From the IMG/VR virus record IMGVR_UViG_3300036766_002281, positions 10,630 to 74,629 of that record: a DNA stretch of 64,000 bases. One strand, 5' to 3'. The notes under the pieces were generated by a model. That model was not told the DNA's origin, ran no database searches, and saw only the letters and a program-made list of their open reading frames with translations. The stretch is from a virus. Below, piece after piece: positions 3,533 to 19,922 of this stretch (its first letter is position 1; every line of letters begins with the position of its first letter). The position numbers were made by a program, and so were the translations under genes.

Positions 3533-6062
3533 TACTGATTACGCTTTAGGAGAAATAAAGGAATCTACGAGTACGACTACGACTATACCTACCAAATGTC
3601 CGTTCTGTAAATCTGAACTTATGACAGTAGACAATGAGCCAGGAAGTACGATTGTAATGTGTAAGGAATGTGGATATGCAGGTTTAATTCCAGATCATCC
3701 TCTGGCACTTGAACGAGGGGCAGAAATGAAAACAGCAGATACAGCAGATAGAGTTTCCGAAGCTCTTAAACGAACTTACTACGAATCTAAAACAGTGCAA
3801 GGGGTATTTGCAAATTCAGTTGAGTTTGTAGACTGGGTTTACAATCGTTGGGGAGATTGGTTGCATTCAGAAGAAGAGTTAGAAAGAAAATTTGATGGAG
3901 ATACCTGGGAATTTATTAAATCAAAGATGCTTAACAAGAAAGACTTTTTAGAAGCATTGTTAGATAATCTTCCAGAACCACTAGATCCGAATAGAGAAAG
4001 TAGTATGAAAACTACTTCAGCTGACGAACATGGAGTAAGAGAACTTTTACTGTATATTGCTCAAGATGATGAACTTCAGAATAGGATTGTAAACCCACTG
4101 AAGGAGAGACTTACACGTAAAATTGAAAAAGGAATATTCGATTTAGATCGTTCTATTTCGGCTTGGCAGAACGTAGTTGAGAAATCAACGCATAAGTATA
4201 TGATGGATTTTGGAGATCCAGGAGAGAAAGTAAGTAATATATTTAATCGATCTACTAGAACTAAGGTGGCTGAAGAGTTGGCTGAAGCATTTAAAGTAGA
4301 ATATGACTTGGGTCATGATCGTGAACGTGAACCTGCCGCTATAGTGGAAAAGGAAGGGGCACCAGAAGCAAGTGATGAAACTCTTTGTTCAAGGTGTCAG
4401 CATATGAAGGGAATTCATGATCCAGATGGATGTAGTGGATCAACAGGAGTCGTAGAAGATCCACTAGAATGTTTTTGTCAAGGGTTTGTAGAGGAAGGAG
4501 CATCTAGGACTGCCGCAGATGAATCTATCTTCAATGAGTTAGTAGATAAGATTGAAAACGAAATTAAAAATACGGAGTCAATGAGTTACTTCAATGTAAC
4601 TCAACCGCTAAAAGAAATTGGAAAGTTATTTGGTAAGGATCGTTTGAATCAAGCTATTGACCAACTTGGTTTAGAAGATTACGGTATAAGAAAAGTTTCT
4701 CACGTATCAGAGTTAGACTCTTGGCTAATTCGTTCTAATTTTACAACAGTCAAACAGGCAGGTGAAGGCGAGGTTGAAGTAGACCCAAGAACTGGAAAAT
4801 GGTTTTGGTTTTCTATCGATCCAGCTCAAGAGGGTAAAGAGGGATTTGAGACTGAAGATGAAGCACGAGCAGATATGGCAAAATTTATGCAACATGTCCA
4901 TGGAAGTAGAAAGCAAGCTGCTGGTGGGGAAGAAGCTGCTCGGGCAGTCTGGGAGGCACTTGACGACGCAGGAAGAAAAGAAGAGTTGGAAGCCATTGGA
5001 GTTCTAAAACTTGAGACATCAAAAAAGGATTGGATTGCTCTTCCACCAGTTACAAGACAGAGACTTACGGAGAAGTTGGAAGGAGTTCCCAAACCTGTAG
5101 AAGAGGGAAAGCAGTATCAAATCAAAAGACCTGATGGGTTTCACGTTTACACTGTAACGGACATTCGTGGTAACCTGATAGAGTTCATGGACGAGCAGGA
5201 GAAAAAGTTTACCGCCCCGAAGGAGACCATAGAACAAGGACTTGCCAAAGGACAGGTTAAGGAAGCGTATATTAACCAGATAGCCGGGGAATTTTGTCCC
5301 CAGTGTAAGATTCCTGTACAAATGGTGGGAAGGGAAGATAATCTCCTTATTATGGGTTGTATAGCCTGTAGCTACAAAACAGCAGAGTACGATAATGAGT
5401 TTAAGATCCAATCTGACCTAGCTGACCAAAAGAGTTTACAAAAAGAAGTAAACAAAATTGATATGTTGTTTATGCATGATAAGAAGTATGCTACTAATCC
5501 TGCGGCACAAAAGTGGTTAAACGACGCAGAAGAATTGTTGGGGCAATGCGAAAAAGCTTATTGGGTTAACGCTGTAAATGAAGATCCTCAAGGAGTAGCA
5601 GAATTAGTTAGAAAAGGTTTGGATATTATAGAACAAATGAAGAGACAGTCAAGAGGTAAAACAGCAGAGTACGAGCGAGAGCGAGAGCGAGAGCAAGAAT
5701 ATGCTGTTCTAAATAGCACGTCCAGTGTTTTGACAAAGAATCCAATGGCGAATGAACTGATAGAAGATTGGGAAAGCCCTCAGCATGGAGAACCTTCGCT
5801 TCATTCTTATCTGCTTATTAAAACGAATAAGTATACTACTCCATTTGTTTTAGTAGGGTCAGGAAAAGAATACTCATCAGTAGGAGATCATATTCTATTA
5901 TGGGATGATGGGAATGGGAGCACTAGATTTCCATTTAGAGATTATAGACCAGGTTATCAAAGACCAGCTGCACGAGGAGAAGTTATTGCCACTGCTTACG
6001 GAGCAGAAGAAATCAAAACTAACTTTCCTCCCGGTCGATATAAAATGATGGTTATGAAGTAG
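3381..6062 (+). CDS. acidic modular protein with K/R-x-A motifs and Zn ribbons (part 2; possibly a frameshifted continuation of 1865-3532)
   Basis: 893 aa; KSA, KTA, RTA, KQA, KEA motifs; CPFC..CKEC and CPQC..CIAC; overlaps the upstream ORF by 152 nt in microsatellite-rich sequence. Confidence 0.6.
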   Translation: MSKKGLKITMTNEYEYEHEVRMRMRMRMRMRKPKPKLKSADQQQYHQNLFNTDYALGEIKESTSTTTTIPTKCPFCKSELMTVDNEPGSTIVMCKECGYAGLIPDHPLALERGAEMKTADTADRVSEALKRTYYESKTVQGVFANSVEFVDWVYNRWGDWLHSEEELERKFDGDTWEFIKSKMLNKKDFLEALLDNLPEPLDPNRESSMKTTSADEHGVRELLLYIAQDDELQNRIVNPLKERLTRKIEKGIFDLDRSISAWQNVVEKSTHKYMMDFGDPGEKVSNIFNRSTRTKVAEELAEAFKVEYDLGHDREREPAAIVEKEGAPEASDETLCSRCQHMKGIHDPDGCSGSTGVVEDPLECFCQGFVEEGASRTAADESIFNELVDKIENEIKNTESMSYFNVTQPLKEIGKLFGKDRLNQAIDQLGLEDYGIRKVSHVSELDSWLIRSNFTTVKQAGEGEVEVDPRTGKWFWFSIDPAQEGKEGFETEDEARADMAKFMQHVHGSRKQAAGGEEAARAVWEALDDAGRKEELEAIGVLKLETSKKDWIALPPVTRQRLTEKLEGVPKPVEEGKQYQIKRPDGFHVYTVTDIRGNLIEFMDEQEKKFTAPKETIEQGLAKGQVKEAYINQIAGEFCPQCKIPVQMVGREDNLLIMGCIACSYKTAEYDNEFKIQSDLADQKSLQKEVNKIDMLFMHDKKYATNPAAQKWLNDAEELLGQCEKAYWVNAVNEDPQGVAELVRKGLDIIEQMKRQSRGKTAEYEREREREQEYAVLNSTSSVLTKNPMANELIEDWESPQHGEPSLHSYLLIKTNKYTTPFVLVGSGKEYSSVGDHILLWDDGNGSTRFPFRDYRPGYQRPAARGEVIATAYGAEEIKTNFPPGRYKMMVMK

Positions 6063-6068
6063 ACGAGA

Positions 6069-6455
6069 ATGATGACCCAGATTTCAGATTCTATTTTTAT
6101 TGGAAATAGTCAAGATCATAAACGACTTGATGTTCTAAAAACAACTGGTATAACCGCAGTATACAATGTCGCAGCAGATTTGAATACTGAATGGTGTACT
6201 GAAATTGTTTACGTTAAATGTGGTTTATGGGATGGACCTGCTGGCAGTAATAGAATTGAGTTAGCTGTTGATCTGCTTGAGAAGTTAGTCGATGGTGGAG
6301 AAAGAGTTCTTATTCATTGCCATGAAGGATGCAATCGTAGTCCATATATTGTGGCAAAGTATTTAGCGAAAAAGAATGGAACTGATTGGAAGAAAGAGTT
6401 TGAAGGCATTAAAGTCAAAAGACCACAAGTCTATATTAAAGATTGGATGAGTTAA
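6069..6455 (+). CDS. dual-specificity protein phosphatase
   Basis: VLIHCHEGCNRS (HCX5R), IFIGN, GITAVYNVA. Confidence 0.88.
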   Translation: MMTQISDSIFIGNSQDHKRLDVLKTTGITAVYNVAADLNTEWCTEIVYVKCGLWDGPAGSNRIELAVDLLEKLVDGGERVLIHCHEGCNRSPYIVAKYLAKKNGTDWKKEFEGIKVKRPQVYIKDWMS

Positions 6456-6480
6456 GTTACGTTAAGTTACGTTAAGTTAC
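6451..6480. repeat. 10-nt tandem repeat (GTTAAGTTAC)x3
   Basis: Read directly from the sequence. Confidence 0.9.
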
Positions 6481-6496
6481 TAAATGGAGTAATCAA

Positions 6497-7066
6497 ATGC
6501 GATTAGAAGAATTAAAAAGTAGTGATGATTTTGAGAATGATGATGATTACTATGAGTACATACATGAATGGGAAACAGCCGACTGGAAAGATATTGAAGG
6601 TTTAATGAATGCTATTGATCATGCGCTGGGAGCTCATGGTCTTGAGTTGATTCAAGGTAAAGGTGAAGATGATAATTACTACGTTAAAGTGGAACAACTT
6701 GGGGAAGGAAAAGACAAAGGAAAACGATCTGAGATCGAAGCTAGTCTTATGACTAAGATGAAGATCTTTCAACGGGAAGCCGTAAGATTAAATCGTAATC
6801 CAAAATCAGTTAAAGAATTTAAGCTTTGGTTAGAAGCTCAAGAACAGAGACAAGCTATTGGTAAACAGAAAGGTCCAGACGTTGGGGAAACGATCGAAGT
6901 CTATGACTTTAGAACTGACGAGATGCTTCCTGCAGAAGTTACTAGTAAACCAAGTCTCAACCAAGATACTGGGCTCGAAGAAGTGGATGTGGTCTTCGAG
7001 GATGGTATGGAACACTACGCGGTCTGGAATGATGATGAAATGATGTGGGAATCAGGGGAGCTATAG
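6497..7066 (+). CDS. leader-family protein (internal leader at 6749, SH3-like C-terminal cargo)
   Basis: MTKMKIFQREAVRLNRNPKSVKEFKLWLEA. Confidence 0.75.
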   Translation: MRLEELKSSDDFENDDDYYEYIHEWETADWKDIEGLMNAIDHALGAHGLELIQGKGEDDNYYVKVEQLGEGKDKGKRSEIEASLMTKMKIFQREAVRLNRNPKSVKEFKLWLEAQEQRQAIGKQKGPDVGETIEVYDFRTDEMLPAEVTSKPSLNQDTGLEEVDVVFEDGMEHYAVWNDDEMMWESGEL

Positions 7067-7070
7067 TTTA

Positions 7071-7256
7071 ATGATAAACAGCATAAAAGTTTCAGATATA
7101 ATTGATCGTAGTGATTCTCCAAGAGCAGAGTTAGATAAGCATATCGACAAAATAAACTTATCTGCTGATGAGAAAGAACGCTTACGAAAACTAATTAGTG
7201 ACGCATTAGATCAATCCTACCAAGAAGGAATTTGGGCAGGACAGGAATCTAGATAG
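7071..7256 (+). CDS. hypothetical protein
   Basis: 61-aa ORF packed between neighbours. Confidence 0.6.
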   Translation: MINSIKVSDIIDRSDSPRAELDKHIDKINLSADEKERLRKLISDALDQSYQEGIWAGQESR

Positions 7257-7267
7257 GGAAATGTGAG

Positions 7268-7930
7268 ATGAAAAAATACGAGCTAACCAACGAGACAACT
7301 CAATCTGCTGCTGGAGCTACTTTGTATAGGATCAAATCCTTAATCAAATCATCAGCAGATTTTGGCATTATCGATTCCGGAGAACTAGGCGGGTTTGTTG
7401 AGAGTGAGGACAATTTAGCACATGATGGTCAATGCTGGATTTCTGATAATGCACAAGTCTCTGGCAACGCACGGGTCTTTGGAAGGGCACAGGTCTCTGG
7501 AAATGCAAAAGTATTCGGCGACGCGTGGGTGGCTGGCGAAGTACAAGTCTATGACAACGCCCAAGTCTATGGAAATGCGCGGATCTCTGGGAGTGAGAAA
7601 GTTTATGGGGATATGGAAGTCAAAGGAGACGAGAAATCAACCCAGAAGGAGGGTAAAAATATGCTAAACAAGATCGAAAAGTTTCAACGTCAAGCAAAAG
7701 CTCTTGGACGAGATGAGAACTCTGTTGAAGAGTTTAAAATGTGGTTGAAGGCAGAAGAGGGAGATTCACTCAAGTTTGAAACCACAAGTGATGAAGAAGT
7801 CCATAGCAATATAGATGACATCATATCCGATTTGAATGATGTAAAGAGTTTAGGCGGTAGAGACGATATCAAAGAAAGATTACGTAATATCAAACATACT
7901 TTAGATGACATTATTAATTACTACAGATAA
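7268..7930 (+). CDS. beta-helix repeat (xNAxVx) protein fused in frame to a leader-family module starting at 7661
   Basis: KKYELT...GELGGFVESEDNL...DNAQVSGNARVFG repeats, then SD AAGGAGG + MLNKIEKFQRQAKALGRDENSVEEFKMWLKA. Confidence 0.8.
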   Translation: MKKYELTNETTQSAAGATLYRIKSLIKSSADFGIIDSGELGGFVESEDNLAHDGQCWISDNAQVSGNARVFGRAQVSGNAKVFGDAWVAGEVQVYDNAQVYGNARISGSEKVYGDMEVKGDEKSTQKEGKNMLNKIEKFQRQAKALGRDENSVEEFKMWLKAEEGDSLKFETTSDEEVHSNIDDIISDLNDVKSLGGRDDIKERLRNIKHTLDDIINYYR

Positions 7931-7940
7931 GGGAGATAAC

Positions 7941-8240
7941 ATGCTATCAAAAATCAAAGAATTTCAACGTCAAGCAAAAGCTCTTGGACGAAATGCCTAC
8001 AGCATTGAAGAATTCAAACTCTGGCTGGATGCTCAGACCAAAACCGCTGAAAAACCAGTTGAAACAGATCTAGAACTAGCTGAAGTGGCTTTAGCTAAAG
8101 CAACGGCAGCTTATTTGGATGCCCTATTACAAGACTTCGGCAAAGATGTTGTTTTAGATGAGGTAGAAGAAGCATTGGATGAGCTGACCTCTGAAACTTT
8201 TGGTCTTTGGGCAAAAGAAAAGTTTCCTTTAGATATTTAG
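7941..8240 (+). CDS. leader-family protein
   Basis: GGGAG SD; MLSKIKEFQRQAKALGRNAYSIEEFKLWLDAQTKTA. Confidence 0.85.
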   Translation: MLSKIKEFQRQAKALGRNAYSIEEFKLWLDAQTKTAEKPVETDLELAEVALAKATAAYLDALLQDFGKDVVLDEVEEALDELTSETFGLWAKEKFPLDI

Positions 8241-8301
8241 GTGATGTCAGATCTAGAAAACCATCTCAGGAAGAGGAATAACCCGAACTAGGAGTAAGAT
8301 T

Positions 8302-8829
8302 ATGTCAAACGTAAACGCAAACGTAAAAGATGTAGCTCATTATGAAGAGTACCAAAAGGAAGTAGAAACACATAAATTTGTTAGCTGGGGTATAGGTATA
8401 GGTATAGGATTAGAATTAGATAAACCTTATATTGTGGCTCCTTTAGTTGGCAAACTAGTTTTTTGTGATGAACAAGTTGATTTGGATTCTGATTATCCAT
8501 GGGATAAAAAACTTCTTGCCCCCGATCCAAGAAAAAGCCCTACTTCTCGTAGAGCAGCAATGATGTATAAATTTGTTACCTGTGGAAGTAGTGTAAAAAA
8601 AGCAAGCGAAGAAATAGTAAAAAATATAAGTATGGTTTTGAATTGTTACCCAGATTTTCAGCTGGTAGTACAAATTGCTTTGGCAGAACCTTATGAGCTT
8701 AGACGTTCTGTTGATGGGACAAAAACTTCTCGGTCTTTCGAGAAAATCGAAGGGGAATCCTACGTTGAAGATTGTGGGTTTGCCTGCGTTGTGCAAGGTT
8801 GTATTGTTAAGAATCCTAGATGGGAATAG
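8302..8829 (+). CDS. hypothetical protein
   Basis: SD AGGAG, 175 aa; GIGIGI is encoded by a (GGTATA)n repeat. Confidence 0.7.
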   Translation: MSNVNANVKDVAHYEEYQKEVETHKFVSWGIGIGIGLELDKPYIVAPLVGKLVFCDEQVDLDSDYPWDKKLLAPDPRKSPTSRRAAMMYKFVTCGSSVKKASEEIVKNISMVLNCYPDFQLVVQIALAEPYELRRSVDGTKTSRSFEKIEGESYVEDCGFACVVQGCIVKNPRWE

Positions 8830-8862
8830 GTAAAAAGGAAATTACTAGACTAGGGAAATAAA

Positions 8863-9090
8863 ATGACACTTTCTGAGCTAAGGACATTGATTGGTAATAA
8901 ATATCTTTATACTGATTTCTATACTGATTGGGAAAATAAAGGGTATGGATTTAGTTTTTCTATAATAGAAGATTCTAAAAATAAAAAAATTTATACTTTT
9001 CCAGGATTGTTTCCTGATTACAAAAGTAGAGATTTGACAGTTAAGTATATGAGACAAGTGTTTGTGCCTGATCCTGAGGAAATAATATGA
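8863..9090 (+). CDS. hypothetical protein
   Basis: 75 aa, ATGA overlap with the next gene. Confidence 0.6.
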   Translation: MTLSELRTLIGNKYLYTDFYTDWENKGYGFSFSIIEDSKNKKIYTFPGLFPDYKSRDLTVKYMRQVFVPDPEEII

Positions 9091-10676
9091 TAGAAACTAT
9101 AATCTTTAAAGATCTTTTACGTTTAACTGCTGATAAAGAAGGGTTTGTAGCCCTAAACACTTCTCGGCATACAAACAAGTGGGTAGCTGGACTTCCAGAA
9201 GAGTTGTGGGAAAGTATCTACGAGGTCAAAACAGGTGATAGAGTTGATCTAGCTTTTGTATTTAGACCAGATGCAAAGTACGATCATGCGAAACTTGCTC
9301 TTTGGCGTAATCATTTTGGAGATGCCCCTAGATTAGAAGATTACAAAGCAGACCATGCTGAAGAGTTTGGTATTGACGAAGAAGAGTTAGAACAGTTTGA
9401 GAACGCACAGGGAGAGAAAGAGGAAATCTATCGCAATGATCGTTACCAGGCTACCAACAAGGATGCCGCTAATTGGCTGTTGAACATTCCAATGAAGTTT
9501 CTTGAACGGTATTTCTATTCACGTACTACTCCAGAAGAGATTGTAAGCATCAGGCACGAACTGATCAATACCCTAGAAGGATTTGAAGCACAGCTCGAGC
9601 AGATTGGAGTCGACCCATCGGAAGTAAAGGAACTGGAATCTGAGTTTGAGACTGTAGCCACCCCTCAACAAATGGATAGGGCATTAGAAGATTTGTACAA
9701 GTTTGGGAAAGACCATGGCGTCTGGTTTGAAAGCACTTTAATGAAAGGTAGTGCAGTTACGGCTTCCAGAGTTTATAAACGATTGGTAGATGGGTGGAAT
9801 AGAATAGTTGAACCAGATTGGAGTCCGAAGATGGATAAAAGTCTGAATACAGTAGTAATTGAATTCTATGATGGGCGGACGGAAAATGTTTTAACTGAAG
9901 AACAGTTAGATGAGTTCTTGGAAGAACAATTCTCTTACAATGATATGAATGCTGGAAAGGGTTTTAAAGTTTTTAAACGAATGAGTTATCAGGATTATCA
10001 AGTTGCGGTAAACGAAATGATTGATGAGATCTTTCCCGGGCATAATATTGGATCAAGCGTGCTAGATAACTTGTGGAGAGATGGGTACAAGATTGCAACA
10101 GTAACTTTGTACAATCGGGTTTGGTATGATAAGTGTGCCCCAGATCTTAATCAACCAAGTAGTTTTGTTGAGCCAAAGATTGTGGGAATGAACCGATATT
10201 ATGAAGTAGTACAAGCTCTCGATCAAATGAATACTGCGATTGGGCATTCCGTATTGAATTGTTTCAGCGACCTTATCCTGTTTAAGAAATCAAACGCTGT
10301 AGGAAGAAAAGCACATGATCAGGATTCAGATACTGTTAGTTCCCTTGACTTGATACTCTTGAACAAGACTGTAGAAGCATTAAATAGCAGAGGACTTTCG
10401 GTAAAGGTAGAAGACTATATCGATTGGCTGACTGGAAATGTGACAAAAGGAAGTTCCCGTTTCGACCAGGCTATTAAACTCTTCTTAACAGAACCAGTTT
10501 ATAACACGTTTAAGCATTTGAATCTTGTAGATGCTAAGGTTAAATTCGAACTAGGTCTTGGCCCACCTACGGTAGACGGGATCGATGTAAGTATGAGTCC
10601 AGAAAAAGAGTCACTACAGTTACTGCCGGGATTTACTGATGCAACAGTGGAGCCGCCAGTAGTAATAACTAGGTAG
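9087..10676 (+). CDS. acidic multidomain hypothetical protein
   Basis: 529-aa ORF; motifs DLLRLTA, SAVTAS, RKA. Confidence 0.7.
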   Translation: MIETIIFKDLLRLTADKEGFVALNTSRHTNKWVAGLPEELWESIYEVKTGDRVDLAFVFRPDAKYDHAKLALWRNHFGDAPRLEDYKADHAEEFGIDEEELEQFENAQGEKEEIYRNDRYQATNKDAANWLLNIPMKFLERYFYSRTTPEEIVSIRHELINTLEGFEAQLEQIGVDPSEVKELESEFETVATPQQMDRALEDLYKFGKDHGVWFESTLMKGSAVTASRVYKRLVDGWNRIVEPDWSPKMDKSLNTVVIEFYDGRTENVLTEEQLDEFLEEQFSYNDMNAGKGFKVFKRMSYQDYQVAVNEMIDEIFPGHNIGSSVLDNLWRDGYKIATVTLYNRVWYDKCAPDLNQPSSFVEPKIVGMNRYYEVVQALDQMNTAIGHSVLNCFSDLILFKKSNAVGRKAHDQDSDTVSSLDLILLNKTVEALNSRGLSVKVEDYIDWLTGNVTKGSSRFDQAIKLFLTEPVYNTFKHLNLVDAKVKFELGLGPPTVDGIDVSMSPEKESLQLLPGFTDATVEPPVVITR

Positions 10677-10711
10677 AACAACGAAATGTATAGAGCTGCG
10701 AACATGTACGC

Positions 10712-10915
10712 ATGAAGGAGTTTATGCTTATGTTCAAGTTCACTGACGATGATGAAGTTTTGTTACGTTGCTTGAATGCCTATTTAGATTGTCCAGGATG
10801 TAAAGGGCAGTTAGTCATTACGCACATAGAATTTTCGAATACATTTTTGAGATTTGTTCCAGTTAAGAGCTGTCTATCATGCAAATCAGATTATTTTATT
10901 ACTGAGTCAGATTAG
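10712..10915 (+). CDS. small zinc-ribbon protein
   Basis: CPGC...CLSC. Confidence 0.55.
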   Translation: MKEFMLMFKFTDDDEVLLRCLNAYLDCPGCKGQLVITHIEFSNTFLRFVPVKSCLSCKSDYFITESD

Positions 10916-10935
10916 GAGCAAGCAAGCACGCACAA

Positions 10936-11103
10936 ATGGAATGCCTACATTTAGAACTAATTAGAATCGACAAGGAAGACAGTTGGCTGTTCTACCAGTG
11001 TAAGAATTGTCATTTCGAAACGGAAGTGAAGGAAACTGAATTTTACAAATCAATGACAGAAGAAGAGAGAAAACAAGTTCACGAACCTTTAGATGGAAAT
11101 TAA
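10936..11103 (+). CDS. small hypothetical protein (CxH...CKNC)
   Basis: 55-aa ORF read manually, below the ORF-track size cutoff. Confidence 0.5.
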   Translation: MECLHLELIRIDKEDSWLFYQCKNCHFETEVKETEFYKSMTEEERKQVHEPLDGN

Positions 11104-11263
11104 TTAAAGTTAATAAACCTAAGGAGAAATCAAACGAACGTGTTCAATCCTACTCAACCTGCTAGTAAAGTATCTAAACCGAAAGCAAATATTGTAAGAC
11201 CATTTGAAAAGATAATGAGACCTAAAACAAAAGTAATTAAAATAAAATTTGAAGGGAATTAAC

Positions 11264-11584
11264 ATGCTATCAAAAATAAAAGAATTTCAACGTCAAGCAA
11301 ACGAACTTAAACGGGATGAGAACTCAGTGGATGAGTTTCGTCTTTGGTTAGAAGCTAAGACAGCAGAAGAAAAAGTTTTTCCTGAAAATACACTTCCTAG
11401 ACGTATCCAACCAGGTATTCGACTTGAAATACCTAGTGGAGATATAGTAAAAGTTGTAAGTAAGCCATATGATTATATGGACAATACTGTGATTGATATA
11501 GTTTTTGATAATGGGTTGGAAACTACTGCTATATGGTATCCTGAAGATAGTAGATGGGATGCCGTAGAAGAGCCAACTGAATAA
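11264..11584 (+). CDS. leader-family protein, SH3-like cargo
   Basis: MLSKIKEFQRQANELKRDENSVDEFRLWLEAKTA. Confidence 0.85.
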   Translation: MLSKIKEFQRQANELKRDENSVDEFRLWLEAKTAEEKVFPENTLPRRIQPGIRLEIPSGDIVKVVSKPYDYMDNTVIDIVFDNGLETTAIWYPEDSRWDAVEEPTE

Positions 11585-11642
11585 GAAGAGCTTATCAACA
11601 ACGAAGCGGAACCAAGACCAAGACCAAGACCAAGGAGATAAC

Positions 11643-11951
11643 ATGCTATCAAAAATCAAAGAATTTCAACGTACTGCAAAAGAGCTGGATACTGATCCAA
11701 ATTCAATAGAACAGTTCAAGATGTACCTTGAAGCAGAATATCCTGAAGGTGGAGAAGGTTCTGCAGACGAAGTAGATTTTGCCATCGAGAAGGTAATTTC
11801 TAGTTTGTATGAATTCAAAAATGGGTTGGATAAATTAAGATATACTAACGAATCTATTTTGGAAGAGTTAGAAAATATGGATATGGTATGGGAAGTATTT
11901 AGAACTGCTGTTACAACCTTTGTTGAATCAAACACAGAAGGGGAATCTTAA
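11643..11951 (+). CDS. leader-family protein
   Basis: MLSKIKEFQRTAKELDTDPNSIEQFKMYLEA; SD AGGAG. Confidence 0.85.
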   Translation: MLSKIKEFQRTAKELDTDPNSIEQFKMYLEAEYPEGGEGSADEVDFAIEKVISSLYEFKNGLDKLRYTNESILEELENMDMVWEVFRTAVTTFVESNTEGES

Positions 11952-11960
11952 GGAGATAAC

Positions 11961-12266
11961 ATGTTAAATAAAATCAAAGAATTTCAACGTCAAGCAAACA
12001 AACTTAAAAGAGATGCCAACAGCGTTGAAGAATTTCGTCTTTGGTTAGAAGCCGATCAAAAAATGATAGAACTTAATGCTGGAATTGTTCCTAGCACAAT
12101 TAAGCAAGTTGACGAAGTCTATTCTCGATTCAAAGGTGCGAAGAATGATCTTACTAAATTGTACCACGAACTCAAGGGGGAAGACGCTGTGGATCTTTCA
12201 GCAGTTCTTACTTCCATGGATAAGGCCATGGAAGGCCTTGAAACTTTATTACAGAGGTATGCCTAA
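11961..12266 (+). CDS. leader-family protein, helical cargo
   Basis: MLNKIKEFQRQANKLKRDANSVEEFRLWLEA; SD AGGAG. Confidence 0.85.
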   Translation: MLNKIKEFQRQANKLKRDANSVEEFRLWLEADQKMIELNAGIVPSTIKQVDEVYSRFKGAKNDLTKLYHELKGEDAVDLSAVLTSMDKAMEGLETLLQRYA

Positions 12267-12267
12267 T

Positions 12268-12357
12268 ATGTTAAACAAAATCAAAGAATTTCAACGTCAA
12301 GCTAGCGAGTTAGGAAGAAATCCAAACAGCGTAGAAGAGCTTAAGTTCTGGCTGTAA
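12268..12357 (+). pseudogene. cargo-less leader (29 aa) ended by an apparent GAA>TAA nonsense change
   Basis: MLNKIKEFQRQASELGRNPNSVEELKFWL*; DNA is TGG CTG TAA GCA where W-L-E-A is expected. Confidence 0.75.
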
Positions 12358-12401
12358 GCAATACCGCTATTGTTATAAACCTATTTGTAGAAAGTGAGGG
12401 A

Positions 12402-12803
12402 GTGAATCGATATAAGTATAAAAACGGGGCAATAGTTCGCATACTTACGTTTTTAACAGTTTTAATTCTTTCTACGAGTATTATAGCGGTACAAGCACGA
12501 ACACTTCTCTCTACGGTGACTTTACTTAAATTTGAGGATGATTACGATCAGAAGGACGTAGCAGTCATGGCAGTTGTAGATCGAATAGCAAAAGTTGATG
12601 GTGCTCACGGTGGTTTTTATTACGAAGTGAGTTTATATCCAGATGTAGTAGCAGTAGCTTTTACAACACAGATAAGTAAAAGGTTAAAGGTTGGAAGCCT
12701 AGTTGAAGTCCGTGGACGTTATTTTAAGTCGAACATGTTCATGGGGAACGTTTACAAACGATTTATTATTGCAGAAAAGCTTCTGGTTCTTGACGTAAGT
12801 TAA
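12402..12803 (+). CDS. exported or membrane-anchored protein, possible OB-fold
   Basis: Hydrophobic N-terminus; LKVGSLVEVRGRY. Confidence 0.55.
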   Translation: MNRYKYKNGAIVRILTFLTVLILSTSIIAVQARTLLSTVTLLKFEDDYDQKDVAVMAVVDRIAKVDGAHGGFYYEVSLYPDVVAVAFTTQISKRLKVGSLVEVRGRYFKSNMFMGNVYKRFIIAEKLLVLDVS

Positions 12804-12965
12804 ACAGTAATAAATCAAACGAAAGCATCTTAGTTTGCGGACCGAAAATTGAGAAACACCAGCAAAAACGGTATAACAAAGTAAATCTAAAACTGAGAAA
12901 GTAAATCTACGAATAGAATGAAATCAATAGAATTAGAGCCATAAAGGAAATCTAAAAGGAAACAA

Positions 12966-13487
12966 ATGTTATCTATTATTGGAGAATTTCAAAGGGAAGC
13001 TGTTAAGTTGGCCAAAGATCCTAACTCGGTTGAGGAATTAAAGAGATTTGCTTATGCAAGAATGTCTTTTATTCATTATTCTAAAACTGAGATAGAAAAT
13101 TTAGGAAGTATGAGAGTAAATTCAATTCTTATATCTATTGCGGGACTGAACGATGATTTTGCTGAAGTAGATGATTCTCGTTTTAAAGATGTATTACGTT
13201 TAAGATTTAGTGATGTAACAAGGGACTTTGGAAAATTTTTAGCTTTTAGAAAAAATCAAGCTGAACAGATTATCGCTTTTGTAAATAGAAACATTCCAGT
13301 TGATTTTGTTTACATCAACTGCGAACAAGGCAGATCTAGATCGGCAGCTATTCATTCAGCTTTAGAAAAAATTTATCATGCAAAAGAGGTTAATTTCCTT
13401 CATTGTAATTTACAGGTCAAGGAGACTTTGTTAGATGTTATCAAAAATCAAAGAGTTTCAGAAGTTAGCACAAGAATTAGACCGTAA
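12966..13487 (+). CDS. leader-family protein carrying a protein-tyrosine-phosphatase-like cargo
   Basis: Leader MLSIIGEFQREAVKLAKDPNSVEELKRF; then LISI, LRLRFSD, INCEQGRSRSAAI (CX5R). Confidence 0.8.
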   Translation: MLSIIGEFQREAVKLAKDPNSVEELKRFAYARMSFIHYSKTEIENLGSMRVNSILISIAGLNDDFAEVDDSRFKDVLRLRFSDVTRDFGKFLAFRKNQAEQIIAFVNRNIPVDFVYINCEQGRSRSAAIHSALEKIYHAKEVNFLHCNLQVKETLLDVIKNQRVSEVSTRIRP

Positions 13488-13893
13488 TCCAAACAGCGTA
13501 GAAGAGCTTCGGCTTTGGTTAGAGGCTCAAACCAAAACGGCTCAGGATCTTAGTTTTACTTCGGATGTTGATGATGTTGATATTCGACCTCGACCAAAAG
13601 ATGTTGATTTTGTAAATGCAAAAGCCAAAGTATTCTGGGATCTGCAAATGGACGCCCGGGAATATGGGATTAAGGATATCTACCCAACAGTTAGAAAAGT
13701 TGTGATTTCAGGAACGTATGAGTACGCCGTAGATATTGATGAAGAGGCAAGAGAAGAAGAGTTTGAGCTCTCCATTACAGCGGAAGAATGGAATATAAAA
13801 GAGGACTTAATGGGTGCGAAATTTGCTAACGGGTTGTACCCTTCTACAGTAAACGTAGACCAAGAATCAAAACAATGTACAGTTGAGTTTTGA
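13435..13893 (+). CDS. leader-family protein
   Basis: MLSKIKEFQKLAQELDRNPNSVEELRLWLEAQTKTA. Confidence 0.85.
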   Translation: MLSKIKEFQKLAQELDRNPNSVEELRLWLEAQTKTAQDLSFTSDVDDVDIRPRPKDVDFVNAKAKVFWDLQMDAREYGIKDIYPTVRKVVISGTYEYAVDIDEEAREEEFELSITAEEWNIKEDLMGAKFANGLYPSTVNVDQESKQCTVEF

Positions 13894-13914
13894 TAGATAG
13901 AACGTTACGAACGA

Positions 13915-14307
13915 ATGATATTAGATCTGAAACAATTTAAAAACGATCTTAAGCATTTGAATCGACATGGAAGTTCCCGGTGCGTTTTAGTAAATGTTTA
14001 CATGATTTCAGATTCAGAGCTCTATCACCGTTTTGTTACAGAACGTTTGAGAGTAGCATTTCCACTCGTTCTAGTTGTGGAAGAATCAAAAATTTTTAGT
14101 GGTTTTTCAAACGATTCTTATAGTAAAATTATGGATAAAATATACAATCGAGAGATTGTACTGTTTTCATTTGAGAATGCTGATGTAGGATTTGGTTATA
14201 ATATTGAGCATCTTCGTAGTAAAGTGCAAGCTGTTGTTGATGAAAGTTTTAGACAAAGAATAGACAAGACCTTTAAACGTATGGAGAGTGAACATGTTGT
14301 CAGATGA
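13915..14307 (+). CDS. hypothetical protein
   Basis: 130-aa ORF. Confidence 0.6.
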   Translation: MILDLKQFKNDLKHLNRHGSSRCVLVNVYMISDSELYHRFVTERLRVAFPLVLVVEESKIFSGFSNDSYSKIMDKIYNREIVLFSFENADVGFGYNIEHLRSKVQAVVDESFRQRIDKTFKRMESEHVVR

Positions 14308-16459
14308 AATAGGCGGTAAACTTCTAGATCTTGAACAACGTAAAGAAGCTGCAAAAGTTAGTAATCATCTACATACTGCAGTAGAAAAGCTCAGAGCAAT
14401 AGAAGAAGCTATTTTAAAGTTTTGTACCAAACCTAGAACTTCCAGCCAGGTTATACAGCTCTTTCCTGCTCGTCCTTTTAACATCTTGGCAATCATGGAA
14501 AATCTTAGAGTTAAAGATATGCTTACTCTTGCTGCCAATAAGTATGTCACAAACGTTGAGCATAGAGAGTTTGATGTCAGCATGACTATGACAGCTGATA
14601 GACGCAGCTTTACTTCGAAGACAGAGGAAATGTGGAGCTATTCCGACCAGGAAAGCAAACGTAGGCTTCTTTCAAAAGCTCATGTAATTCCAGAGAACGT
14701 TCCCAGATTCGCAGCAGAAGAATGGGCTCATCTTCCATCATGGGTTCAGAAGGCAGTTGAATATGAGCATAAGCATCCAGCCATTTTAGCAGAAGTTGAG
14801 GGTCAGGCAGAATATCCAGATCGCCCAAGTATTCAAACTATAAAAGATGCAGACGGACAATTCTACGCAGAAGAAGTTGAAGAGTCTGGAGGAGATTGGG
14901 GAGTATTCGATACCGAAGTAGGACATTGTTTTGCTACTTACTCAGGATCAGCTAAAGCAGAAAAAGAAGCGGATAAAATGAATCAAGAACATGGGCTAGG
15001 AAAGTATAAAAAGAAAAAAGCTGATGACGCTCCTGCAACTATAAATGTCAATGAGCAATCGCAACTTCAGCAAGTTGAAGGTGCAGAAGAAGATCACGGT
15101 CCTTCGTGTGAGATCTGTGGTTATGAATTTACCGAATCCCCTCAATTTGGAAACTCAGATATATGCCAACGTTGTGCTAAGGATCCTAACAAACGAGAAC
15201 AGTATGCAAGAGATGCTGGTTACGGTAAATGGCGGGGTGGGGACGAACGTAGTCTTGATCAGGCAGTTTCGGGCGAGATTGTTCCCTTCGGGGATAAATG
15301 GTGGAAGTTTACAGGTAGAATGACTTACAAACAATTGCGACCTGGAGTGATTTTTGGAGCCACTTATAGAGCCTTTAACGCCGGGTTTACTATTGAAGAG
15401 TTTCTTGGCTATTCTGGAAGAGATGTTAAGTATGGAGAAGGTGGTAAAAAGTATGATACCATCCAAGAAGTTTTTAAAGCTGAAGGAGTTAATTCCTTAA
15501 AGGCATTAGAAGCAAAACAAGATGAAGGGGAATACGGTTTTCATACCTACATGTGTACCAAGGAGTTGAGTGGTAAGCTGGAAGAGGGATGTTACTACTA
15601 CATTAGCGAAGGTAGATGGAGTAGAGGATCTGGTGCTGAGGCATTAAGCTTCTGGACAGTTGAAGAAATGGCAAAGCCAGAAAAGTATGAGGATGAAGAA
15701 GGTGGAGCCTTCGCACCAAGAAAGCATTCTCCTAGAGATCTATCGGTATCTGATCTTAAGGAAAGCCGGAGACGAAGACAAGCTTGTGATAAGGGGCAAT
15801 TTATCGAGCTTACATCAGTACAGGATGTTGATACAGGAGTAACTACAGATAATCCAATAGAGCTCCAGGAAGTGGTTGACTCTGGATTGAGTGCCAATTA
15901 CAAAGCTACGTTTATTACCAATGGTAGATCCAGAACTGCAATGTTGTCTACCTTGCCTGTAAAGAAGATAAAAGTTAAAACAGCAGAACCATTAATTCGA
16001 CAAGTTAAATCGGCAGATTCCAGTTTCGAAGAACATGTTAAGAAATTAATGCAAGAGGCTTTCAAGTATTATTCTGAACAGACAAAAATTATTCCAGACA
16101 CAGTAGATATCTGGAACGACGTTTTGAACAGTTTGTCTAGAGAACGTGGTACTACCTTAACCAAAGAAGAAGAGAATGAAGTCTGGGCTATTATTACTGG
16201 CGAGGAACCAGAAGGCGGAGGCGAAGACGAGATTGATATCAGTGGCTGTGGAACACAGATTAAGCAATTCCAAAGTGAAGCCAAACGATTAGGTCGTAAT
16301 GCTAACAGTGTTGAAGAACTTAAACTATGGATGGAAGCTGACAACGCTGAAAAAGAAGAACCTTTCAAATGGAAACACAAAACTTATGAAGAACCACCAC
16401 CTACAGCAGAACAAATATTACAAGAAATGGAAGATAAAGAATTTGATTCGTTCTGGTAA
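14288..16459 (+). CDS. acidic modular polyprotein with K/R-x-A motifs and a leader copy near the C-terminus
   Basis: KKA, RQA, RTA, KTA, KSA motifs; TQIKQFQSEAKRLGRNANSVEELKLWMEA at ~16250-16339. Confidence 0.75.
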   Translation: MNMLSDEIGGKLLDLEQRKEAAKVSNHLHTAVEKLRAIEEAILKFCTKPRTSSQVIQLFPARPFNILAIMENLRVKDMLTLAANKYVTNVEHREFDVSMTMTADRRSFTSKTEEMWSYSDQESKRRLLSKAHVIPENVPRFAAEEWAHLPSWVQKAVEYEHKHPAILAEVEGQAEYPDRPSIQTIKDADGQFYAEEVEESGGDWGVFDTEVGHCFATYSGSAKAEKEADKMNQEHGLGKYKKKKADDAPATINVNEQSQLQQVEGAEEDHGPSCEICGYEFTESPQFGNSDICQRCAKDPNKREQYARDAGYGKWRGGDERSLDQAVSGEIVPFGDKWWKFTGRMTYKQLRPGVIFGATYRAFNAGFTIEEFLGYSGRDVKYGEGGKKYDTIQEVFKAEGVNSLKALEAKQDEGEYGFHTYMCTKELSGKLEEGCYYYISEGRWSRGSGAEALSFWTVEEMAKPEKYEDEEGGAFAPRKHSPRDLSVSDLKESRRRRQACDKGQFIELTSVQDVDTGVTTDNPIELQEVVDSGLSANYKATFITNGRSRTAMLSTLPVKKIKVKTAEPLIRQVKSADSSFEEHVKKLMQEAFKYYSEQTKIIPDTVDIWNDVLNSLSRERGTTLTKEEENEVWAIITGEEPEGGGEDEIDISGCGTQIKQFQSEAKRLGRNANSVEELKLWMEADNAEKEEPFKWKHKTYEEPPPTAEQILQEMEDKEFDSFW

Positions 16460-16557
16460 GTCTTAATTAAAAATGATGGAAGAATATTAATTCGAAAGGA
16501 TTAAAACAATTAACAAACTAACAATCAACATTAAACGAAACGAAGGAGAACACGACT

Positions 16558-16962
16558 ATGTACGCTTTCATCGCAGCTTACAAACTTTATATTACCAATG
16601 GTGGTTCTGGATCAGCAACAAGTTTAACTGACTTCTTGACCTGGTTTAATGGCATTAGAAATGCCCTTACTCAGGAGCAGCAGATTTATATTGATCTTCT
16701 GAGTAATTCTGCTTATGCAACGTTCAGAAACAAATCTTCTGCTGTAATTCAAGAAGCAGTGCATGGTCTTGAATTTATTGATAACGTTGATAACTATACA
16801 GATCCAGCAAATACTGCCACTGCCTATCCAACAACTGTTTCAGGAAGTACTGTGATGGCCACAGCATTTATTAAGGCAGAGCTGGCAATGTTTGATAAGG
16901 TTATTAACGAGAATGGGCAATCGAGTAATAGTCAGGTAAATACTCTTCAAACGCTTTTATAA
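16558..16962 (+). CDS. hypothetical protein, possibly structural
   Basis: Strong SD AAGGAG; Ala/Thr/Asn-rich, 134 aa. Confidence 0.65.
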   Translation: MYAFIAAYKLYITNGGSGSATSLTDFLTWFNGIRNALTQEQQIYIDLLSNSAYATFRNKSSAVIQEAVHGLEFIDNVDNYTDPANTATAYPTTVSGSTVMATAFIKAELAMFDKVINENGQSSNSQVNTLQTLL

Positions 16963-17003
16963 GCGTAAGTGATCAAACGAAAGAAAGGTAGGCAATTAAA
17001 TCC

Positions 17004-17300
17004 ATGCTGGACCAAATCAAAGCATTTCAAAAGGAAGCTAAAGCTCTTGGTCGTAATGAGAACTCTGTGGAGGAGTTCAAGCTATGGATTGAGAGCGAGT
17101 CTCAGTCTCAATCGCAGACCAAGCAAGCTGCTGAACCAGAGGAAGATTACGATGAAGATAGAAAAAAGGTAATGGGAGATATCAAAAAGGAAATTGATTT
17201 TGTGTTAGAAAATTCATTTCCAGAGTTAGAGAACTTAGAGACTGTTATGTTCTTTGAGGACAATGATCCTGTTATAAAAGTAAGATTTATAGGTAGGTAA
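17004..17300 (+). CDS. leader-family protein
   Basis: MLDQIKAFQKEAKALGRNENSVEEFKLWIES...TKQA. Confidence 0.85.
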   Translation: MLDQIKAFQKEAKALGRNENSVEEFKLWIESESQSQSQTKQAAEPEEDYDEDRKKVMGDIKKEIDFVLENSFPELENLETVMFFEDNDPVIKVRFIGR

Positions 17301-17307
17301 AATACCA

Positions 17308-17610
17308 ATGCTGAATAAAATTAAAGAATTTCAACGTCAAGCAAACGAACTTAAACGAGATCCAAACTCTTTGTCTGAGTTCAAACTCTGGCTGGATGCT
17401 CAGACCAAGACAGCTGCTTCAGACACTGTAAAAGCTATTTTCACTTTAGAAATCAGAGATGATGATACTGGATATCCTGTTGATGTAGATTACAGTGAGT
17501 ATGAGGAAATGATGGAAAAACTTGAACAGATACTTATGAGAGCAAGATACAAAGGAGAAGGGTTAAACGCAGTAATTACTTCCCATGCTGATTCTGGTTG
17601 GCAAGGGTAA
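17308..17610 (+). CDS. leader-family protein
   Basis: MLNKIKEFQRQANELKRDPNSLSEFKLWLDAQTKTA. Confidence 0.85.
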   Translation: MLNKIKEFQRQANELKRDPNSLSEFKLWLDAQTKTAASDTVKAIFTLEIRDDDTGYPVDVDYSEYEEMMEKLEQILMRARYKGEGLNAVITSHADSGWQG

Positions 17611-17623
17611 ACTGTAAGAGCCT

Positions 17624-18646
17624 ATGAATTACAAATACCTGATGGTAAAAGTGGCTCATTTCCAGCACGATGCCCATAATCCGAATTCGATAGATGAATT
17701 TAAACTTTGGTTAGAAGCCAGAAACAGGCATGCCTGGATTGAACCACTGGGGGATGAAGATACTTTAAGAACGTATCTGAAAGAAAACCATCCAGAATCT
17801 TTGGATGGTAACCATCCTGTGTATCTTTTTGTGGATGAGTCGTTTGAAGAACATAAACTGATGTTAGTAGGCTCCACGCCTATTACTCTAAACTTTTTGA
17901 AGAACTTTAAAAGATTGTATAATGAGACAGAGCAAGAACGTGAAGACGAAGCGGCAGAAAAAGAAGCACTACCACCAGTTCTATCAAATAAAAAATCGTA
18001 TAAAAATGGAGCGCCCAACATGTTAAAAGAACTAAATCAATTTCAGAAGGAAGCAAAACAACTAGGAAGAAATGAGAACTCTGTTAATGAGTTTATATTA
18101 TGGCTGGAAGCAAGATCGCAATCTAAAACGGCATTAAGTGATGAGGCAAACAAATTCATTAGTGACAAAATTAGTAAGCTTCATGACGAAGGTTATGAAG
18201 GGGATCAAGCTATTGCTATAGCTCATGAGTATGCCAGAGATGCTGGCTACGATGTTCCAAGTCCAAAAAGTTCTTATACAAAAACGAAAAAGAAAGCTGA
18301 TCCAGATCCAGAACCTGAGGCAGACTTTGGACCAGACGAAGACTTGGGGGATCAAATAGAAGACGTAATGGAACATGAGGATGACCCAGAAAAGGAAGCC
18401 AAGCAGTTGATGGCTCTTTGGGAAAAAGGTGAGATGAGTTTGAAAGAGCTTCACCACCATATCTTAGAAGAATATGGTACGGAGCAGGAAGAAGAAAACA
18501 TTGAAGACATCGTTTTTGATCTAATTGACAAGCACGTCAAAGAGCTCAAGGGCGAAACCGAAGATGAGAGCGAGAGCGAGAGCGAGCTCGAAGAAGAGGA
18601 AGAGGAAGAAGGAGTAGGCGAAGAAGTTGGAGTACCAGAAAAATAG
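17624..18646 (+). CDS. double leader-family protein (degenerate leader ~17642; second leader at 18020)
   Basis: HFQHDAHNPNSIDEFKLWLEA and MLKELNQFQKEAKQLGRNENSVNEFILWLEARSQSKTA; very acidic tail. Confidence 0.8.
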   Translation: MNYKYLMVKVAHFQHDAHNPNSIDEFKLWLEARNRHAWIEPLGDEDTLRTYLKENHPESLDGNHPVYLFVDESFEEHKLMLVGSTPITLNFLKNFKRLYNETEQEREDEAAEKEALPPVLSNKKSYKNGAPNMLKELNQFQKEAKQLGRNENSVNEFILWLEARSQSKTALSDEANKFISDKISKLHDEGYEGDQAIAIAHEYARDAGYDVPSPKSSYTKTKKKADPDPEPEADFGPDEDLGDQIEDVMEHEDDPEKEAKQLMALWEKGEMSLKELHHHILEEYGTEQEEENIEDIVFDLIDKHVKELKGETEDESESESELEEEEEEEGVGEEVGVPEK

Positions 18647-18647
18647 G

Positions 18648-19034
18648 ATGAAAATAATCGTGTACAAGACTAGGGAAATAGAGAAGATAATTTCGTTTTT
18701 CCAGCATTTACCCGATGACTGGGATAGTTACGGGAGCCCACGTCCTAGTGCTAAAACTATTTATTCGTTAGAAAAGTTTACATCAAAGTTCTTTAAATTT
18801 TTCTATCTTCGAAATTCTGTTTATGCTATTCCAGGTGGGGGTATCCAACTTGATTTTAGGTATGAGCAGAAAGTTTTAGGATTTGAAATCTTTTCCAACG
18901 GGGAAATTCGTTATGAGCAGTATATAGGTAATAATCTGCTTTCCTGCAACGATCCTATTTGTAATAAGATTTCTTTGAAGGAAGATCTGGCAGATGCTCA
19001 GTTTAATGCTTTACTAAACTGGTTGATGGAGTAG
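18648..19034 (+). CDS. hypothetical protein (LPDDWDSYG motif)
   Basis: ORF 18627-19034; ATG 18648 follows the upstream stop. Confidence 0.65.
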   Translation: MKIIVYKTREIEKIISFFQHLPDDWDSYGSPRPSAKTIYSLEKFTSKFFKFFYLRNSVYAIPGGGIQLDFRYEQKVLGFEIFSNGEIRYEQYIGNNLLSCNDPICNKISLKEDLADAQFNALLNWLME

Positions 19035-19041
19035 CGAGTAA

Positions 19042-19386
19042 ATGATTCATGCGATAAAGGTTTTTCAACGTGAGGCAAGAGAGTTGGGTAGAGATGCCAA
19101 CAGCGTTAAAGAGTTAAAACTTTGGTTTCAGGCAATGACTGACGCTAAGTTTGATTACATTTTTGAGAAGCATCCAGAGTTTAAAACGCAATCAAGTCAT
19201 GAAATAATACAAATACTTAAGAATAGGTATCATCTGGACGGAGAAGAGATTACAGATTTTTTAAAACGTTTTATGCTAAGAGATGAAAAAGAAGCAGTAG
19301 CTCCTTATGATGTGGATCAGACGGAGGGTCGGCCAGGACATTCTTATGAAGAAATTCGTGATGTGTTAACTGGATTAGGAATATAA
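19042..19386 (+). CDS. leader-family protein
   Basis: MIHAIKVFQREARELGRDANSVKELKLWFQA. Confidence 0.8.
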   Translation: MIHAIKVFQREARELGRDANSVKELKLWFQAMTDAKFDYIFEKHPEFKTQSSHEIIQILKNRYHLDGEEITDFLKRFMLRDEKEAVAPYDVDQTEGRPGHSYEEIRDVLTGLGI

Positions 19387-19388
19387 TC

Positions 19389-19568
19389 ATGTATGGGGCA
19401 ATAGAAACTAGTTCTGAAGTAAAAAGACTTTCTTCAGATCGATCTAGTTCTATAAGTAATAGATCTATGGTTGTTCAATGTCACAACTGTTTTGCTTTTG
19501 GAAGCGTAGAAACAAACGAAAGATTTGATTTCTTTTTATGTGATATATGCGTAAACGTAAAGGACTAA
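19389..19568 (+). CDS. small Cys-rich protein (CHNC...CDIC)
   Basis: 59-aa ORF read manually; paralogous to the downstream ORFs. Confidence 0.55.
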   Translation: MYGAIETSSEVKRLSSDRSSSISNRSMVVQCHNCFAFGSVETNERFDFFLCDICVNVKD

Positions 19569-19607
19569 AACGTTCGTTTGTTCTCATTCCACTAAGGGAG
19601 GCTGAAC

Positions 19608-19913
19608 ATGGAAGTAAAAGAATACCAGGCTAGAGTATGTCATAACTGTGTTAAGCCGTTTATTGTGGAAGAGGTATCATTTCGGCGAGTATGCCCCGTA
19701 TGTGCCAGAATTGGTCATGAAAATACAAGTTCGAAGAAGAAATGTTCTAAATGTAGATCGCAGGTCTGGTATAGAAGAATCGTAAGAAAGATTTCGTCCT
19801 GGTTTAAGTATATGGTTGAAGGAGTTAAAAATAGATCACGATTAGTAAAGAAGAAGTCTAAAACTTTAACAATAAGATTAAAAACTGTATCAAAACGATC
19901 AAAACGAAAGTAA
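19608..19913 (+). CDS. zinc-finger protein (CHNC..CPVC..GH..CSKC)
   Basis: Cys/His pattern; SD GGAGG. Confidence 0.7.
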   Translation: MEVKEYQARVCHNCVKPFIVEEVSFRRVCPVCARIGHENTSSKKKCSKCRSQVWYRRIVRKISSWFKYMVEGVKNRSRLVKKKSKTLTIRLKTVSKRSKRK

Positions 19914-19922
19914 ACAAACTAC

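Follow-up and report, generated by a model that had tools for sequence, protein, structure and literature searches.

Integrons consist of single-gene cassettes that lack promoters and are arrayed with a repeated sequence at their junctions; they rely on the tyrosine recombinase IntI and on attC sites. In polymorphic toxin loci, including the contact-dependent inhibition (CDI) and Rhs loci, a conserved N-terminal coding stretch is followed by variable C-terminal cargos, and the same short stretch, where it precedes stored orphan C-terminal modules, probably supplies the homology for swapping them. Among phages, the internal proteins (Ip) of the T-even group have only an N-terminal leader in common, which directs capsid packaging; they are encoded at two highly variable loci with more than 30 variants, and PeSL-like (promoter early stem-loop) conserved sequences are associated with these loci (PMC12373910, PMC3012670, PMC2839356). 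Conserved flanking and leader sequences of the Ip loci were proposed as shuffling sites by Repoila et al. 1994, as cited in PMC3012670, PMC2839356 and PMC12373910. The capsid targeting sequence (CTS) of T4 measures ~10–20 amino acids (aa), occurs strictly at the N-terminus and is cleaved off by the prohead protease (PMC7411985). In T4-type phages, PeSL are short repeats beside small non-essential open reading frames that mediate deletion, insertion, replacement and the formation of mini-circles without a site-specific recombinase; the crossovers lie near the Shine–Dalgarno sequence and ATG, within short segments that are perfectly identical (PMC2839356, PMC4122927). Here we describe a repeated leader, consisting of a ribosome-binding site (RBS) and the coding sequence of a short peptide, in a 64,000-nucleotide (nt) stretch of virus DNA (the window) that makes up bases 10630–74629 of a single 74,629-base IMG/VR virus record (CheckV completeness 43%). 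Recombination within this leader has most likely happened, episodically, between copies that are maintained by selection on the peptide.

A profile hidden Markov model (HMM) was built from ten leader copies and applied to the window and to the remainder of the 74.6-kb contig. We detected 15 copies of 31–35 aa, all between 6746 and 19140 and spread over 14 proteins of one large phage, with none in the rest of the contig (Table 1). Ten are N-terminal with an RBS of their own, including the solo copy at 12268, which may be a cargo-loss scar or the product of a nonsense mutation, and the other five lie inside longer open reading frames or close to their C-terminal ends (ORFs; 6746, 7661, 16247, 17660 and 18020). 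The homology begins ~14 nt 5′ of the ATG (AAGGAGATAAC) and stops at about +113, in codons 35–38, and the sequences on either side of it are unrelated among copies. Leader DNA identity between copies is 50–79%, and perfect identity over at least 24 nt occurs in just ten copy pairs.

Like the T-even Ip/CTS genes, these are small, clustered accessory genes that have only a conserved leader in common and whose content varies between related phages: apart from one related pair, the cargos are unrelated beyond the leader, and the loci are variable in relatives. The leader, known here from sequence alone, differs from the short, strictly N-terminal propeptide of T4 in being three times longer, in having a predicted helix-loop-helix fold and in occurring away from the N-terminus as well (internal or C-terminal in 23/75 representatives). 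The lineage is unrelated to T-even phages, its best terminase match (36%) being Virus Rctr197k. As in PeSL, short repeats beside small ORFs are possible sites of homologous exchange without a site-specific recombinase, but PeSL are non-coding promoter-plus-terminator cassettes, whereas the repeat here is coding sequence plus RBS; compared with shuffles, positions 6000–20000 contained no PeSL-type enrichment (30 promoter-like sites against 38 expected; 11 terminator-like sites against 7.4). Mini-circles have been demonstrated for PeSL, while here only the repeat-cargo-repeat structure of one related locus, described below, fits such exchange. An array of single-gene cassettes with a repeated junction sequence also resembles an integron, but the repeat occupies the 5′ end of the coding sequence, no attC-like 3′ element was found among the repeats, and no tyrosine or serine recombinase (PF00589, PF00239) was found in the 74.6-kb record, itself 43% complete. 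Unlike the bacterial CDI and Rhs loci, which have large delivery domains and paired immunity genes, the array showed neither feature.

The preliminary description of this DNA had listed five blocks of identical sequence shared patchwork-wise by leader copies. Exact-string search recovered all five (5/5), at no other site and never on the minus strand: blocks of 35 nt (11279 and 17323), 29 nt (8013 and 17380), 24 nt (12319 and 13486) and 30 nt (7682 and 7962), and the RBS-context string GGAGATAACATG (7932, 11634 and 11952). When all in-register exact blocks of at least 17 nt were enumerated, the longest was one of 39 nt that the description had not listed, which comprises the RBS and first 30 nt of the 7941 and 11643 copies. 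The 11961 copy carries an 18-nt patch (12009–12026) identical to the 19042 copy and is otherwise like 11264.

Over all informative sites, the pairwise homoplasy index (PHI) was significant (p<0.001). Because neighbouring sites within a codon are not independent, we reran it in three further forms, which gave p=0.002 with between-codon site pairs only and codon order permuted, p=0.05 with codons as characters and p=0.07 with third positions only. Within the quartet of the 17308, 7941, 11264 and 11961 copies, 11/11 sites at nt 75–114 group 17308 with 7941, whereas 8/8 sites at nt 7–72 support other groupings, so that support switches at nt 72–75. This 3′ grouping is backed partly by synonymous differences (TTC/CTC/CTG against TTT/CTT/TTA), and the codon class of Ser21 (AGY or TCN) cross-cuts the remaining groupings. 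The codon-aware PHI and the partitioned quartet support bear out the view that identity among the copies is mosaic and does not follow a simple tree. The copy singled out earlier as 5′-like 11264 and 3′-like 7941, at 17308, has the pattern PPPPPqPqPPPPPPqqqqqqqqqqqq, which gives p=3.4e-4 by site but p=0.026 by codon, uncorrected for 1320 possible triplets, and therefore this triplet on its own is suggestive only. That the patchwork extends to synonymous positions held for the 3′ grouping but not for the 5′ likeness of 17308 and 11264, which is confined to non-synonymous sites. The global recombination signal is thus sound, and each individual event is suggestive only.

Relatives of the array provided a further test of cassette structure. 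A degenerate DNA pattern of the leader had nine matches in the window and none in shuffles. No IMG/VR relatives were retrieved with a peptide pattern, the anchor proteins g9087 and g14288 or the DNA pattern, in a search from which the record itself may have been left out, and the DNA pattern had 0 matches in GTDB genome contigs. Among metagenomes it matched nine loci, seven of them true, from Hainich groundwater (ERZ1292623) and one JGI record; the other two (L008 and L009) were chance pattern matches within a 429-aa frame (HMM E=0.005) and were dropped. These loci carry homologues of core genes of the window, namely the major capsid protein (MCP, 73% aa identity), the terminase (59%), the protease protein (45%) and the 26998 gene (37%). 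Their leader genes sit at differing places among the core genes (Table 1), and the window has no leader at any of these positions, so the comparison of array order suggested in the preliminary description showed no fixed array. In L010, a 160-nt repeat that is 100% identical (3091–3250 and 3520–3679) lies in two adjacent genes and consists of 57 nt of upstream sequence, including the 3′ end of the preceding gene, and 103 nt of leader, with unrelated cargos after it. As assembled, this structure would match the expectation for unequal crossing over or for integration of a one-repeat circle, and on this sequence pure divergence cannot explain the repeat.

Three side observations were made on these loci. 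The first cargo of L010 has the same 31-nt sequence at its start and end (3264–3294 and 3465–3495; EGAKKNITDY), a second direct repeat that flanks the cargo. In L003, a perfect 36-nt intergenic repeat in the RBS region (1746–1781 and 2464–2499) precedes the MCP homologue and the gene before it, and probably serves both as a regulatory or translation-initiation element. TnpB-like fragments adjoin leader genes in L004 (2805–3257) and L006.

Both available runs containing the window, which are sediment metagenomes, were examined as Logan contigs and unitigs. In the source run, unitig breaks coincide exactly with the shared blocks (7941–7961, 11308 and 17328–17352), as would be expected if the assembler had jumped between leader copies at shared k-mers and so produced chimeric copies. 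We consider such an artefact highly improbable, as the shared blocks are at most 39 nt and thus below read length, unitig depth is even (13–17x), and near-identical pieces occur in the run of a second study (X2), though these are short and of low depth and allow no array comparison. Furthermore, the 17308 copy is unique outside the blocks (its first 15 nt differ from both 11264 and 7941), so it is no splice of two copies. No leader-to-leader joints are listed in the Logan contigs of both runs, but contigs cannot show rare forms, and the contig data neither support nor refute ongoing exchange. Contigs of other organisms in the source sample match the leader only at nt 7710–7747, which indicates other leader-bearing phages in the same sample. 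At 13641–13818, a second source-run contig has ~36 listed differences over ~180 nt and about half the depth, and represents a related strain or phage whose copy of the g13435 cargo has diverged.

Synonymous sites constrain how much exchange there has been. At positions where a pair of copies agrees in residue, the codon is also identical in 51% of cases (42% expected from the codon usage of the contig), and in the 3′ third (codons 23–33) codon identity is at the level of chance (42% against 44% expected). A clear synonymous excess is limited to codons 8–11 (TTT CAA CGT CAA). Residues are conserved while synonymous variation is about that of chance, so what is conserved cannot be an RNA or DNA element. 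With synonymous identity near chance the copies are not kept homogeneous as recombination arms, and near-saturation of these sites points to exchange that is occasional rather than continuous. The copies are mostly old, are maintained by peptide selection and are not being homogenised.

The proposal that RBS and leader together act as a homology arm for gene conversion and cargo exchange therefore stood only in part: recombination in the leader is likely, the homology is bounded at ~-14 and ~+113 and the cargos are unrelated but for one pair, yet the copies are not homogenised as maintained arms would be. That this proceeds without a dedicated integrase is likewise valid for the 43%-complete fragment only, in which we found no integrase, resolvase or RecA genes.

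The peptide itself belongs to a rare family. A profile search of 1.84 billion representative proteins returned 75 matches at E<=1e-3, with the module N-terminal in 52, internal in 19 and C-terminal in 4. Residues F8, Q9, A12, L15 and S21 are invariant, and AlphaFold2 with a 22-sequence alignment predicted a helix (2–14), a loop and a second helix (22–34) with a mean confidence (pLDDT) of 93.7. By sequence, no relatives of the leader were found in Pfam (E<=0.1), PHROGs or the PDB. By fold, Foldseek, a wide VIA-align search and the ESM Atlas gave no specific match, and the first two returned generic helical hairpins only (VIA-align Z<=4.7); the SAP domain 2do5 was a weak Foldseek hit (rank 6, E=9.3) and the leader had no Pfam match to SAP (PF02037) at E<=0.1. 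The leader also has a conserved motif, F-Q-[KR]-x-A, whose residues 10–12 lie for example at 7688–7696 of the window, and its V/I22-x-E24 may loosely resemble the L/I-x-E sites of T4 type. Given the architecture and the analogy to T4, the leader may serve as a common docking or targeting module.

In an all-against-all BLASTP comparison of the cargos in the window, we found one related pair only, g11264 and the C-terminal part of g6497; the whole of g11264, leader and cargo, is homologous to g6497 over 111 aa, and the cargo alone gave E=9e-6. The cargos vary in length and type, and include a CX5R phosphatase-like domain and acidic helical proteins, among others. In the wider family, 68 cargos of at least 30 aa formed 53 BLAST clusters. 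A cassette that is free in one protein and fused in another was seen in P0017, which matches residues 773–886 of P0023 at 63% identity, as in g11264 and g6497; P0023 was ruled out as an orthologue of g14288, the leader being the sole aligned part. The CX5R ORF extends 53 nt into the 13435 leader in a different frame, as if its end had been replaced at the junction. In the ORF at 7268–7930, the N-terminal part of which matches phrog_7964/5070 and the YdcK solenoid repeat, a source-run contig lacks 33 nt at 7530–7564, one 11-aa unit, which is a repeat-number polymorphism of the beta-solenoid.

We favour, with a probability of roughly 0.6, an explanation in which occasional recombination takes place between coding leader copies under peptide selection. 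The repeated unit would encode a small folded module that heads 14 proteins here or is embedded in them, and that accompanies at least 53 cargo families within a small lineage of phages, uncultivated and from groundwater and sediment, with the peptide, not the DNA, under selection. Since the ~115-bp stretch from RBS to codons 35–38 is the sole sequence common to neighbouring genes, homologous recombination or short-patch gene conversion between copies would occasionally occur there. The outcome would be mosaic leaders with breakpoints near nt 38–50 and 72–75, leaders joined to new cargos, and cassettes duplicated, inserted or fused to upstream ORFs. We infer that recombination and not convergence gave rise to the mosaic; the exchange would proceed through general recombination functions of phage or host, probably as a by-product of repeated coding DNA and not through a dedicated system. 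Several results weigh against this explanation. The signal comes from only ~100 nt, PHI is marginal (p ~0.05–0.07) with third positions or codon characters, and no triplet survives correction for 1320 tests; because the 5′ likeness of 17308 and 11264 is non-synonymous, convergence on an alternative residue set (NELKRD versus KALGRN) is possible. Copies that are 50–79% identical with nearly saturated synonymous sites must be mostly old and a poor recombination substrate today. The relatives are distant (37–73% aa identity in core genes) and fragmentary, and the L010 repeat is known from assembly alone. Some leader-cargo pairs are also stably co-inherited across genomes (g19042 with P0049/P0061, g17624 with P0065/P0067), and their leaders have diverged together with the cargos.

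An alternative is tandem duplication followed by divergence only, where the leader was kept for its peptide, the cargos diverged until unrecognisable, and the mosaic reflects convergent residue choices, codon bias and chance within 100 nt. Near-chance synonymous codon identity (0.51 against 0.42, and 0.42 against 0.44 in the 3′ third), the marginal forms of PHI, the loss of triplet significance on correction and the stable leader-cargo orthologues are all consistent with it. We nevertheless think divergence alone unlikely: the codon-aware permutation gave p=0.002, the discordant 3′ grouping is backed by synonymous sites, the cargos differ in length and type, and in L010 unrelated cargos follow a leader repeat whose 160 nt are 100% identical. 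At the other extreme, the RBS-plus-leader DNA could be kept as a recombination site in a dedicated, selected cassette system, integron-like but without an integrase and possibly working through excised circles, with frequent exchange within and between co-infecting phages. The 15 copies in 12.4 kb with four runs of directly adjacent cassettes, the order repeat-cargo1-repeat-cargo2 in L010, which fits one-repeat circle integration or unequal crossing over, the presence of further leader-bearing phages in the source sample, seen as loose ends at 7710 and 7747, and the precedent of PeSL mini-circles (PMC2839356) all point this way. However, DNA conservation does not exceed the needs of the peptide outside codons 8–11, the copies mostly share too little identity, too unevenly distributed, for homologous exchange to be efficient, the contigs showed neither junctions nor circles, and there is neither a conserved 3′ boundary element nor an excess of promoter- or terminator-like sites, which makes a system of this kind quite improbable. 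Occasional recombination under peptide selection can be extended to a fuller picture, which we regard as tentative and somewhat doubtful: a docking or targeting domain of 33 aa, folded, whose coding DNA and RBS double as a portable recombination junction, forming an integrase-free cassette system by which more than 50 unrelated cargo families have been distributed in a lineage of large uncultivated phages, joined to larger proteins and relocated within the genome. Such a system would be a functional counterpart of the T4 Ip/CTS loci, with a leader that is unrelated and far larger.

The window has a GC (guanine plus cytosine) content of 37.7%, and its long ORFs are all on the + strand. It is a fragment of a large uncultivated phage, as the record is 43% complete, has no nucleotide match among deposited phages (INPHARED) and has its closest terminase in Virus Rctr197k; a search of the entire record of that virus found no leader. 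Recognisable core genes are listed in Table 1. At the edge of the array, a leaderless dual-specificity phosphatase (6069–6455; DSPc, E=2.5e-15) also matches PF22785, 'polymorphic toxin system DSP-PTPase' (E=3.5e-7).

Table 1. Leader copies and core genes of the window, and placement of leader genes in related loci
Feature	Coordinates	Strand	Remarks
Leader	6746–6847	+	Residues 84–117 of 189-aa ORF 6497–7066; HMM E=8e-14
Leader	7661–7759	+	In-frame fusion behind beta-solenoid ORF 7268–7930; own AAGGAGG RBS and ATG; HMM E=3e-22
Leader	7941–8045	+	N-terminal on 99-aa gene 7941–8240; blocks in common with 11643 (39 nt), 7661 (30 nt) and 17308 (29 nt)
Leader	11264–11365	+	N-terminal on gene 11264–11584; 35-nt block 11279–11313 = 17323–17357
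Leader	11643–11744	+	N-terminal on gene 11643–11951; 39-nt block 11635–11673 = 7933–7971
Leader	11961–12065	+	N-terminal on gene 11961–12266; 5′ and 3′ parts like 11264
Solo leader	12268–12357	+	29 codons, then TAA (codon 30; GAA in other copies); no in-frame cargo
Leader	12966–13067	+	Most divergent N-terminal copy; CX5R phosphatase-like cargo, gene 12966–13487, phrog_5614
Leader	13435–13539	+	N-terminal on gene 13435–13893; 24-nt block 13486–13509 = 12319–12342
Leader	16247–16348	+	Near C-terminus of 723-aa ORF 14288–16459; HMM E=2e-14
Leader	17004–17105	+	N-terminal on gene 17004–17300; HMM
Leader	17308–17412	+	N-terminal on gene 17308–17610; clearest mosaic: nt 16–50 = 11264, nt 73–101 = 7941
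Leader, partial and degenerate	17660–17725	+	At N-terminus of 340-aa ORF 17624–18646; HMM E=2e-7
Leader, complete	18020–18121	+	Second in ORF 17624–18646; two-leader layout kept in homologues P0065, P0067
Leader	19042–19140	+	N-terminal on gene 19042–19386; cargo homologues P0049, P0061, leaders diverged alongside
FtsZ/tubulin homologue	23001–23942	+	PF00091, E=8e-36; 4–6 kb downstream of leader array
Complete TnpB	24213–25382	+	OrfB_IS605 and Cas12f1-like TNB; 4–6 kb downstream of leader array
Large terminase	28624–30531	+	
Class I ribonucleotide reductase	40097–42469	+	
Portal	43341–46661	+	
Protease-containing 963-aa protein	46936–49827	+	Protease-like domain phrog_18299
Major head protein	50759–51913	+	
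Leader genes, L002 and L007			Adjoin 26998 homologue and terminase
Leader genes, L003			Immediately 3′ of MCP gene
Leader genes, L004 and L006			Among 26144/26654/TnpB-like genes
Leader genes, L010			Precede 1530/1865 homologues

Recombination alone is expected from repeated DNA in recombination-proficient phages and has clear precedents; the main value of these results lies in the unannotated leader family more than in the mosaicism. If the explanation we favour is true, the array would be a second, independent case of the principle known from T-even internal proteins, in which a leader marks accessory proteins for a common fate and also gives the homology for their re-assortment. With 75 members among 1.84 billion proteins, this rare family offers a handle on the accessory, possibly injected or anti-defence, proteins of poorly known large environmental phages.

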